Shown here piece by piece: positions 4,681-6,951 of a stretch of 64,000 nucleotides of DNA. The notes below the pieces were generated by a model that saw nothing but the letters and a program-made list of their open reading frames with translations, did not search any database and was not told the origin of the DNA. Origin of the DNA: Escherichia coli (GTDB lineage Bacteria > Pseudomonadota > Gammaproteobacteria > Enterobacterales > Enterobacteriaceae). Where the stretch lies: the NCBI RefSeq assembly GCF_024502345.1, contig NZ_JALDNN010000001.1; one strand, written 5' to 3'. How positions within the stretch are numbered: the first letter of the stretch is position 1; each line of letters opens with the position of its first letter. A program made the position numbers and the translations under genes.

Positions 4681-5697
4681 ATGTCCACATTACGCCTGCT
4701 CATCTCTGACTCTTACGACCCGTGGTTTAACCTGGCGGTGGAAGAGTGTATTTTTCGCCAAATGCCCGCCACGCAGCGCGTTCTGTTTCTCTGGCGCAAT
4801 GCCGACACGGTAGTAATTGGTCGCGCGCAGAACCCGTGGAAAGAGTGTAATACCCGGCGGATGGAAGAAGATAACGTCCGCCTGGCGCGGCGCAGTAGCG
4901 GTGGCGGCGCGGTGTTCCACGATCTCGGCAATACCTGCTTTACCTTTATGGCTGGCAAGCCGGAGTACGATAAAACCATCTCCACGTCGATTGTGCTCAA
5001 TGCGCTGAACGCGCTCGGCGTCAGCGCCGAAGCGTCCGGACGTAACGATCTGGTGGTGAAAACCGCCGAAGGCGACCGCAAAGTCTCAGGATCGGCCTAT
5101 CGCGAAACCAAAGATCGTGGCTTCCACCACGGCACCTTGCTGCTCAATGCCGACCTTAGCCGCCTGGCAAACTATCTCAACCCAGATAAAAAGAAACTGG
5201 CGGCGAAAGGCATTACCTCAGTGCATTCCCGCGTGACCAACCTCACCGAGCTGCTGCCGGGGATCACCCATGAGCAGGTTTGCGAGGCCATAACCGAGGC
5301 CTTTTTCGCCCATTATGGCGAGCGCGTGGAAGCGGAAATCATCTCCCCGGACAAAACGCCAGACTTGCCAAACTTCGCCGAAACCTTTGCCCGCCAGAGT
5401 AGCTGGGAGTGGAACTTCGGTCAGGCTCCGGCATTCTCGCATCTGCTGGATGAACGCTTTAGCTGGGGCGGCGTGGAACTGCATTTCGACGTTGAAAAAG
5501 GCCATATCACCCGCGCCCAGGTGTTTACCGACAGCCTCAACCCCGCGCCGCTGGAAGGCCTCGCCGGGCGACTGCAAGGCTGCCTGTACCGCGCGGATAT
5601 GCTGCAACAAGAGTGCGAAGCGCTGTTGGTTGACTTCCCGGACCAGGAAAAAGAGCTACGGGAGTTGTCGACGTGGATAGCGGGGGCGGTAAGGTAA
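4681..5697 (+). CDS. lplA: Lipoate-protein ligase A
   Basis: 338 aa [22 protein letters not shown]... matches LplA. Confidence 0.93.
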
Positions 5698-5728
5698 CTC
5701 GCTGATTAAAATACCAAAGGAAGGGAAT

Positions 5729-5992
5729 ATGATCGATCTGGAAAACCAAGAGCGGGAGATTATCAATTTAATGTTAAGCCAGCGTATTTCCTGGCTAGCC
5801 GCCGTGCGTATCAGGCATAAATTATCGCTTGCTGAAGTAAGTAAAATGTTAGGTATCTCGATTAATTCTCTAAAATAGATCGAAAAGACGGAACGGTTTA
5901 GCTCAAACATCAAAAGCAAAATGGCAGAAATTTATGGTTGTCCACCAGAGTTGCTGATATGCCCTTCCTGGATGACGGCTGAACATAAATGA
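5729..5992 (+). pseudogene. XRE-like HTH reading frame interrupted by one in-frame TAG (MIDLENQEREIINLM...ISINSLK*IEKTERFSSNIKSKMAEIYGCPPELL)
   Basis: AGGAAG RBS then ATG at 5729; 49 codons, TAG, then 37 more in-frame codons with an HTH-like tail; occupies the lplA-deoD gap where I recall yjjJ in K-12. Confidence 0.35.
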
Positions 5993-6090
5993 ATAGATTC
6001 GTGAATAGATACTTGAATGTATTTTATTTTCTATCCATATGAAAAATAATAGTAAATCTATAAATCAGTTGCTATTGATGAATAGATACT

Positions 6091-6119
6091 AAAAAGCCGG
6101 AGCAGTCTCCCGCTCCGGC
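6091..6119 (-). terminator. Rho-independent terminator downstream of deoD
   Basis: GCCGGAGC / GCTCCGGC stem followed by a T-run on the minus strand, just past the deoD stop. Confidence 0.7.
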
Positions 6120-6152
6120 TTAACACAACAATCGTCTTTCAGCGAAACACAA

Positions 6153-6872
6153 TTACTCTTTATCGCCCAGCAGAACGGATTCCAGTGCGATTTTGATCAT
6201 GTCGTTGAAGGTGGTCTGACGCTCAGCGGCAGTGGTTTGCTCGTGAGTGCGGATGTGGTCAGACACGGTGCAGATGGTCAGGGCTTTCGCGCCAAACTCT
6301 GCAGCCACGCCGTAGATACCAGCCGCTTCCATTTCCACGCCGAGAATGCCGTATTTTTCCATCACGTCGAACATTTCGCCGTCCGGAGAGTAGAACAGGT
6401 CAGCGGAGAACAGGTTACCCACGCGAGCATCAACGCCCAGTGCTTTAGCCGCGTCTACCGCGTTACGCACCATGTCAAAGTCAGCGATAGCGGCAAAGTC
6501 ATGATCTTTAAAACGGATGCGGTTAACTTTGGAATCGGTGCAGGCACCCATACCGATAACGACGTCGCGCAGTTTTACGTGCGGCAGAACTGCGCCACAG
6601 GAACCCACGCGGATAATTTTCTTCACGCCGAAATCGGTGATCAGTTCTTTGGTGTAGATGGAGCAGGACGGGATACCCATACCGTGACCCATTACGGAAA
6701 TTTTGCGGCCTTTGTAAGTACCGGTGAAGCCCAGCATACCGCGAACGTTGTTCACTTCACGGGCATCTTCAAGGAAAGTTTCAGCAATATACTTCGCACG
6801 CAGCGGGTCGCCTGGCATCAAAACTACGTCAGCGAAATCGCCCATTTCTGCATTAATGTGTGGGGTAGCCAT
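6153..6872 (-). CDS. deoD: Purine nucleoside phosphorylase
   Basis: 239 aa [31 protein letters not shown]... matches DeoD. Confidence 0.95.
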
Positions 6873-6890
6873 TGTTTTATCCTTATCAAC

Positions 6891-6947
6891 ATGTTTTCAC
6901 CCTCTCCCTGTGGGAGAGGGCCGGGGTGAGGGCATCAAGCCGCACCC
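6891..6947. repeat. Intergenic stem-loop between deoB and deoD (CCCTCTCCC...GGGAGAGGG)
   Basis: Inverted repeat seen directly in the 79-bp deoB-deoD spacer. Confidence 0.4.
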
Positions 6948-6951
6948 ATTA

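Follow-up and report, generated by a model that had tools for sequence, protein, structure and literature searches.

In this stretch of an Escherichia coli chromosome, the gap between lplA and deoD appears to be a site from which hipH (yjjJ) has been replaced, where the gene now present has been disabled by an amber codon and where a cluster of short repeats would be the orphaned 5' array of the missing hipH; we regard this overall explanation as quite probable. In the lineage behind the window, by which we mean the whole stretch of 64,000 nucleotides that was analysed, the hipH open reading frame (ORF) would have been swapped for an unrelated 286-bp segment carrying a gene on the opposite strand, here called HTH87, which a CAG to TAG change at codon 50 would then have disabled. 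HipH, a HipA-like toxin kinase, is proposed to bind the repeats through its N-terminal helix-turn-helix (HTH) and to repress its own promoter, with two to three copies in a 12-nt tandem at the hipH start codon and one distal copy flanking that promoter; the window strain would be left with an array that has no gene to control. Within the window itself we find nothing new in operation, and its odd frame is an annotated and common nonsense allele. What is new is an apparently undescribed cis-element of hipH, deeply conserved from Escherichia to Rhodanobacter. As a 9-nt word held at fixed geometry before hipH, it provides a cheap and testable hypothesis, namely that HipH represses itself via its N-terminal HTH.

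The window is of the Escherichia/Shigella chromosome type, with serB, ytjB, lplA, the gap, deoD, deoB and deoA in that order. The gap extends for 455 bp between the stop of lplA (lipoate-protein ligase; 4681..5697, plus strand), which forms its left boundary, and the stop-side end of deoD (purine nucleoside phosphorylase; 6153..6872, minus strand), which forms its right boundary at 6153. A purine-rich, Shine-Dalgarno-like run, AAAGGAAGGGAA (5716..5727, plus strand), lies directly 5' of the ATG of HTH87, an XRE/HTH_3 gene of 87 codons plus TGA (5729..5992, plus strand) that is a pseudogene in the window and contains a single in-frame TAG, at codon 50 (5876..5878, plus strand), in the predicted recognition helix. 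No terminator was found between lplA and this frame, and HTH87 is probably co-transcribed with lplA, since the lplA stop is only 31 nt away. The segment that stands in place of the hipH ORF covers 5698..5983 (286 bp, no strand assigned). It is followed by a vestigial hipH start codon on the minus strand (5984..5986, reading CAT on the plus strand), where homology to the deoD-hipH intergenic region of K-12-type genomes starts.

Counted from this vestigial ATG and read on the minus strand, two proximal copies of the motif ATCTATTCA lie at -12 (5990..5998) and -24 (6002..6010), followed at -36 by a degenerate third proximal copy, ATACATTCA, with two mismatches (6014..6022; TGAATGTAT on the plus strand). 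A 56-nt spacer (6023..6078, minus strand) then separates the proximal copies from a distal ATCTATTCA at -101 (6079..6087, minus strand), whose offset from the first proximal copy is 65 nt, and the intrinsic terminator of deoD lies beyond it (6094..6121, minus strand). The plus-strand form TGAATAGAT is the complement of ATCTATTCA, which is the motif on the hipH sense strand, and in the 64-kb window it occurs exactly at these three sites only, all inside 98 bp. The degenerate copy is a further unit of the 12-nt tandem, and some other strains have it in exact form. For its last two codons and its TGA stop, HTH87 uses sequence of the hipH leader and of the first repeat. A search of the gap for known RNAs (Rfam, E<=1) gave just one spurious snoRNA match, below threshold; HipA_C-like sequence was found neither in 5698..6152 nor elsewhere in the window, and the 64-kb window holds no HipH homologue. 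The original prediction had described about 450 bp at a place where K-12 has yjjJ, an XRE-like frame of about 87 codons broken by a single TAG at 5876..5878, and three repeat copies; the K-12 gene, the gap and the frame are all as it described, and the three copies are exact, with the second and third having been placed one base off.

Genomes of the K-12 type carry the order lplA-hipH-deoD, in which hipH is 1329-1332 bp long and on the strand opposite to lplA. Homology between that allele and the short one, as we call the form seen in the window, spans 5984..6152 and stops exactly at the hipH start codon. Relative to the hipH/yjjJ locus of E. coli K-12 (PMC8262856), the window represents the same slot and keeps the deoD-proximal intergenic sequence, the array and the hipH start triplet, whereas the hipH ORF is absent and 286 bp of unrelated sequence with an opposite-strand gene is found instead. 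On neither strand does this 286-bp segment resemble hipH in DNA or protein, which argues for substitution by foreign or unrelated sequence and against a deletion derivative. An origin of the short allele through internal deletion or inversion of hipH was considered and rejected, with blastn (word size 7), blastp and tblastn against four hipH genes returning chance matches only. Raised divergence of the flanks, which would have hinted at a recent import of one of the alleles, was likewise not seen: lplA and deoD are only 1-2% apart between the two classes, no more than they are between two short-allele strains.

Of the two occupants hipH is likely to be the older, because hipH-deoD adjacency reaches the Erwiniaceae, and from its distribution the lplA-deoD gap appears to be the ancestral home of hipH. 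An HTH87 ortholog occupies the same site in a second genus, implying that the replacement is old or was transferred. Both the direction of the change, probably from hipH to HTH87, and its age are read from these distributions.

The comparison of strains with and without yjjJ that had been suggested with the original prediction was carried out on 5426 complete E. coli genomes. Full-length hipH is present in 1346 and the short allele (at least 80% coverage) in 4057, with zero overlap between the classes. Three quarters of the complete genomes are thus without hipH at this site, and caution is advised in letting hipH phenotypes from K-12 speak for E. coli generally. The short allele is a common and already annotated polymorphism, in which a small accessory XRE gene fills the hipH slot in about 75% of genomes. 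When its copies are divided by exact 30-mers centred on codon 50, 1690 genomes have TAG and 2034 have CAG, so that the same ORF free of the TAG, which was also to be looked for, is widespread. In O157:H7, ATCC 8739, CE10, MP1 and others, annotation treats the CAG copy as an intact gene for an 87-aa 'helix-turn-helix domain-containing protein', and the closest match to the window's gap among the complete E. coli genomes is 98.7% identical. A different arrangement is seen in E. coli WB61 (H98, NZ_CP020025.1 673687-673826), where hipH is represented by its first 140 nt only, annotated 'transcriptional regulator'; possibly this is yet another allele, in which hipH has been cut down to its HTH.

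When the TAG is translated as Gln, the HTH87 product passes the Pfam model PF01381 HTH_3 (28.5 bits against a gathering score of 23, E=1.5e-6, residues 23-76), and because the TAG falls within this match the whole-domain ORF is interrupted in the window. Position 50 is Q or R in the intact 87-aa homologues that occur in E. coli, Shigella flexneri, E. marmotae and other Escherichia species. Pairwise dN/dS among the intact alleles is about 0.11-0.3, from small counts, with a higher value on the branch of SCPM-O-B-8794, and intact HTH87 is, to judge by these ratios, a real gene under purifying selection. The nearest described proteins are WP_000566150.1 and WP_000566145.1 (E. coli O157:H7, CE10 and others), which are encoded by the orthologous 87-aa gene at the same site and share 97-98% identity with the window frame when that is translated through its TAG; their genes are intact, with CAG at codon 50, whereas the window has TAG together with L16 and F57. 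The idea of a decayed regulator, put forward with the original prediction, is upheld by the existence of intact 87-aa homologues.

An exhaustive profile search for HTH87 over 1.8 billion cluster representatives returned only Escherichia, one 43%-identical 87-aa ortholog and generic XRE matches, and among GTDB species representatives only two Escherichia loci were found, which suggests a tiny family, essentially confined to Escherichia and one other enterobacterial genus. NCBIfam has no specific subfamily for it. The 43%-identical ortholog (P0079, locus L003, Logan DRR526040) is intact, has lplA and deoD as its neighbours and is oriented as in the window; LplA of the organism that carries it shares 88% identity with the window LplA. 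Of the array, this locus (L003:864-1371) retains only the remnant TGAACAGAC, and the remaining gap is taken up by REP-like palindromes.

In size and in consisting of a single HTH_3 domain, HTH87 resembles the small repressors of the XRE or Cro/C1 type such as CylR2 (PDB 1utx/2xiu), with a weak profile match to CylR2 (E=0.006). A role as a HipB antitoxin was considered and dismissed: BLASTP against K-12 HipB gave no alignment at E<=100, no NCBIfam HipB model matched, and an operon partnership of the HipB type is at odds with the mutual exclusion of HTH87 and hipH at the locus. For P0096, one of the few distant relatives of HTH87 (L025:1337-2315; E about 1e-3), a HigB_toxin gene is found two genes upstream; this hints weakly at an antitoxin origin of the XRE lineage to which HTH87 belongs, and at E about 1e-3 it is not informative.

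The amber codon itself appears to be a recent lesion. Codon 50 is CAG (Gln) or CGN (Arg) in all intact homologues and a stop at that position is conserved in none, and the amber allele is set apart from its closest intact relative by CAG>TAG and L57F. The 49-aa truncated products in the protein database share the L16 background without exception, which speaks for the amber allele having arisen once. The TAG cuts the protein within the recognition helix, and PGAP annotates the TAG copy as 'pseudogene, internal stop'; the copy in the window is, on the sequence comparison, a recent loss-of-function pseudogene produced by a single CAG>TAG change and not a suppressor-dependent gene. The original prediction had allowed for a small gene readable only in an amber-suppressor background, and a functional TAG, whether through suppression or programmed read-through, could draw on the frame past the TAG, which is still open and unchanged but for F57, and on the fact that a supE-type suppressor would insert the ancestral Gln. 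We give this next to no credence: an open frame after the TAG is what a young nonsense mutation would leave, the codon is sense in the intact homologues, the TAG sits on a single haplotype, other strains inactivate HTH87 differently, and nothing in the sequence suggests a recoding signal. Programmed UAG recoding as such was rejected, the in-frame UAG not being conserved among homologues, which have Q or R, and the TAG being confined to the one haplotype. In E. coli MS20675 (L020, NZ_CP082056.1 5068203-5069444) the same gene has been independently inactivated by a frameshift, and one 12-nt repeat unit has been lost. The 30-mer of the TAG allele also occurs at three places on plasmid records, which suggests captured chromosomal segments or assembly artefacts.

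While HTH87 accounts for the frame, it does not appear to account for the repeats, whose distribution follows hipH. At K-12-type loci, ATCTATTCA starts at -12, -24, -36 and -101 from the hipH ATG, and the array precedes hipH in nine of nine loci, from Enterobacterales to Xanthomonadales, that were picked by similarity of the protein and not by the motif. Synteny of deoD and hipH is shared by Citrobacter freundii, Salmonella enterica, Kosakonia cowanii, Cedecea davisae, Erwinia tasmaniensis and one further genus; in all six loci the distal ATCTATTCA is exact and lies at about -100, and two to three proximal copies (at most one mismatch) form a 12-nt tandem from about -36 to -10, within intergenic sequence that is otherwise not alignable. 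In the Xanthomonadales, the hipH loci of Luteibacter pinisoli (L146:1412-1500) and Rhodanobacter sp. Si-c (L147:1412-1500) read ATCTATTCAagtATCTATTCAtgcATG, with the ATCTATTCA pair set directly against the ATG, and in each a distal copy precedes the first copy of the pair by exactly 65 nt; their neighbour genes are unrelated, with no deoD or lplA nearby. The window conforms to this pattern, having at least two ATCTATTCA at a 12-nt period that end within about 3 nt of the hipH ATG and the same 65-nt offset from distal to first proximal copy as E. coli of the K-12 type, Salmonella, Luteibacter and Rhodanobacter. A scan of metagenome contigs was made in the other direction, starting from the motif. 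Among the 120 loci listed, 26 have a HipH homologue just downstream in the same orientation, with 35-95% identity and a locus GC of 43-67%; two are the E. coli short allele, and those of the remainder that were inspected, about 30, are simple repeats or isolated chance matches.

From this distribution we take the repeats for the 5' array that hipH has left behind, and judge it probable that they are the operator of HipH itself, with ATCTATTCAagtATCTATTCA as a candidate target sequence. A factor encoded by hipH is the easiest reading because the motif follows hipH across orders, from 43 to 67% GC and through unrelated neighbourhoods. The N-terminal HTH is also the most conserved part of HipH, its mean pairwise identity being 67% against 54%, and contains the near-invariant motifs SQAT(F/L)SR and ARAT. 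That the repeats might be the operator of the 87-aa HTH protein itself, as the original prediction had proposed for its decayed regulator, seems distinctly improbable. HTH87 adjoins the array and has its stop codon inside the first repeat, and in both alleles an HTH protein is encoded beside the array; yet the array is downstream of HTH87 rather than at its promoter, its register is fixed to the opposite-strand hipH ATG, it accompanies hipH in all of the protein-chosen loci, including those of the Xanthomonadales where no relative of HTH87 was found, the intact ortholog at L003 has no exact or one-mismatch copy of the motif, and the short alleles of E1V33, SCPM-O-B-8794 and MS20675 are missing one repeat unit. 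The operator-like character of the repeats stands, but they would belong to the absent hipH, whose start codon on the opposite strand sets their position.

Autoregulation of hipH through the array would have a model in the HipB operators of hipBA. HipB-type operators are TATCC-N8-GGATA inverted repeats, and the HTH of HipB binds several of them in the hipBA promoter. As proposed for hipH, a Hip-kinase gene is there preceded by several short operator copies near the promoter and an own HTH is encoded. The two systems differ in that the HTH of hipH is fused to the kinase while that of hipBA is HipB, and in that the hipH sites are direct repeats of 12-nt period plus a distal copy, whereas those of HipB are inverted repeats.

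HipH has been described as a HipA-family kinase with an N-terminal HTH that 'may bind DNA', and its control was given as unknown (Gerdes et al. 2021, PMC8262856). Cyclic di-GMP acts through the native promoter to raise hipH transcription, and both toxicity and nucleoid localisation depend on the HTH (PMC11452175). A rather unlikely account of the array, to which we would nonetheless give some weight, is that it is bound by another host repressor or acts at the RNA level, controlling translation from the hipH mRNA leader. ChIP-exo of tagged YjjJ in K-12 found zero binding sites (PMC8464067); of all the evidence this weighs most heavily against binding of the array by HipH, although expression or tagging may explain it. 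Reg-Seq placed two repressor sites in the yjjJ promoter, one for MarA and one unidentified (PMC7567609), the latter also fitting a HipH operator, and the tandem copies abut the hipH ATG, leaving no Shine-Dalgarno sequence. Against this account, a host factor or leader element would have to accompany hipH through all of the backgrounds listed above, and the distal copy, 65 nt upstream of the tandem and right after the deoD terminator in Enterobacterales, is probably outside the hipH mRNA. In some distant homologues, whose sequences were read by eye, the pair also lies between TTGAC(A/T) and a TTCAAT hexamer that is -10-like.

Binding by HipH, the reading that we prefer, would place the promoter between the proximal and distal copies, and in hipH-bearing genomes the 56-nt spacer may perhaps hold it. 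A scan for sigma-70 consensus sequences, directed at a hipH promoter and at an antisense one in the window, found none on the window minus strand or at the K-12-type and Salmonella loci and one in the further genus. In the window the 56-nt length of the spacer is kept, while its sequence is not alignable to the promoter region of the hipH allele. A full-text literature search for the 9-mer returned only primer and shRNA coincidences and no paper on a HipH operator, and a search by sequence found no solved HipH structure.

In the short alleles the array shows signs of being a relic. The -36 copy varies among strains, as TGAATGGAT, TGAATGTAT or TGAATAGAT, the distal copy of the MP1 short allele is mutated, one 12-nt unit has been lost in those of Escherichia sp. 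E1V33, SCPM-O-B-8794 and MS20675, and the L003 locus keeps a vestige; for the remaining copies, divergence within E. coli is too shallow to read constraint. It is improbable, in our estimation, that the dimorphism of hipH and HTH87 is instead a maintained alternative, in which the array geometry (-12, -24, -101 and the 56-nt spacer) has been kept because it is still used. The array could then be bound by HTH87 or another factor, or a vestigial promoter could drive antisense transcription into HTH87 and lplA, and HTH87 might confer antitoxin-like 'immunity' against HipH-type kinases that are acquired in trans.

Two further differences from K-12-type genomes are seen next to the gap. The protein identity between the window LplA (4681-5697) and that of the K-12 type (L002:655-1671) is just 97.6%, and several of the substitutions in the window lplA are clustered in the final 35 nt before the stop codon. 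On the other side, the deoB-deoD spacer (6873-6951) exceeds that of the K-12-type locus by 23 nt and contains a GC-rich palindromic element, ccctctccctgtgggagagggccggggtgagggc.
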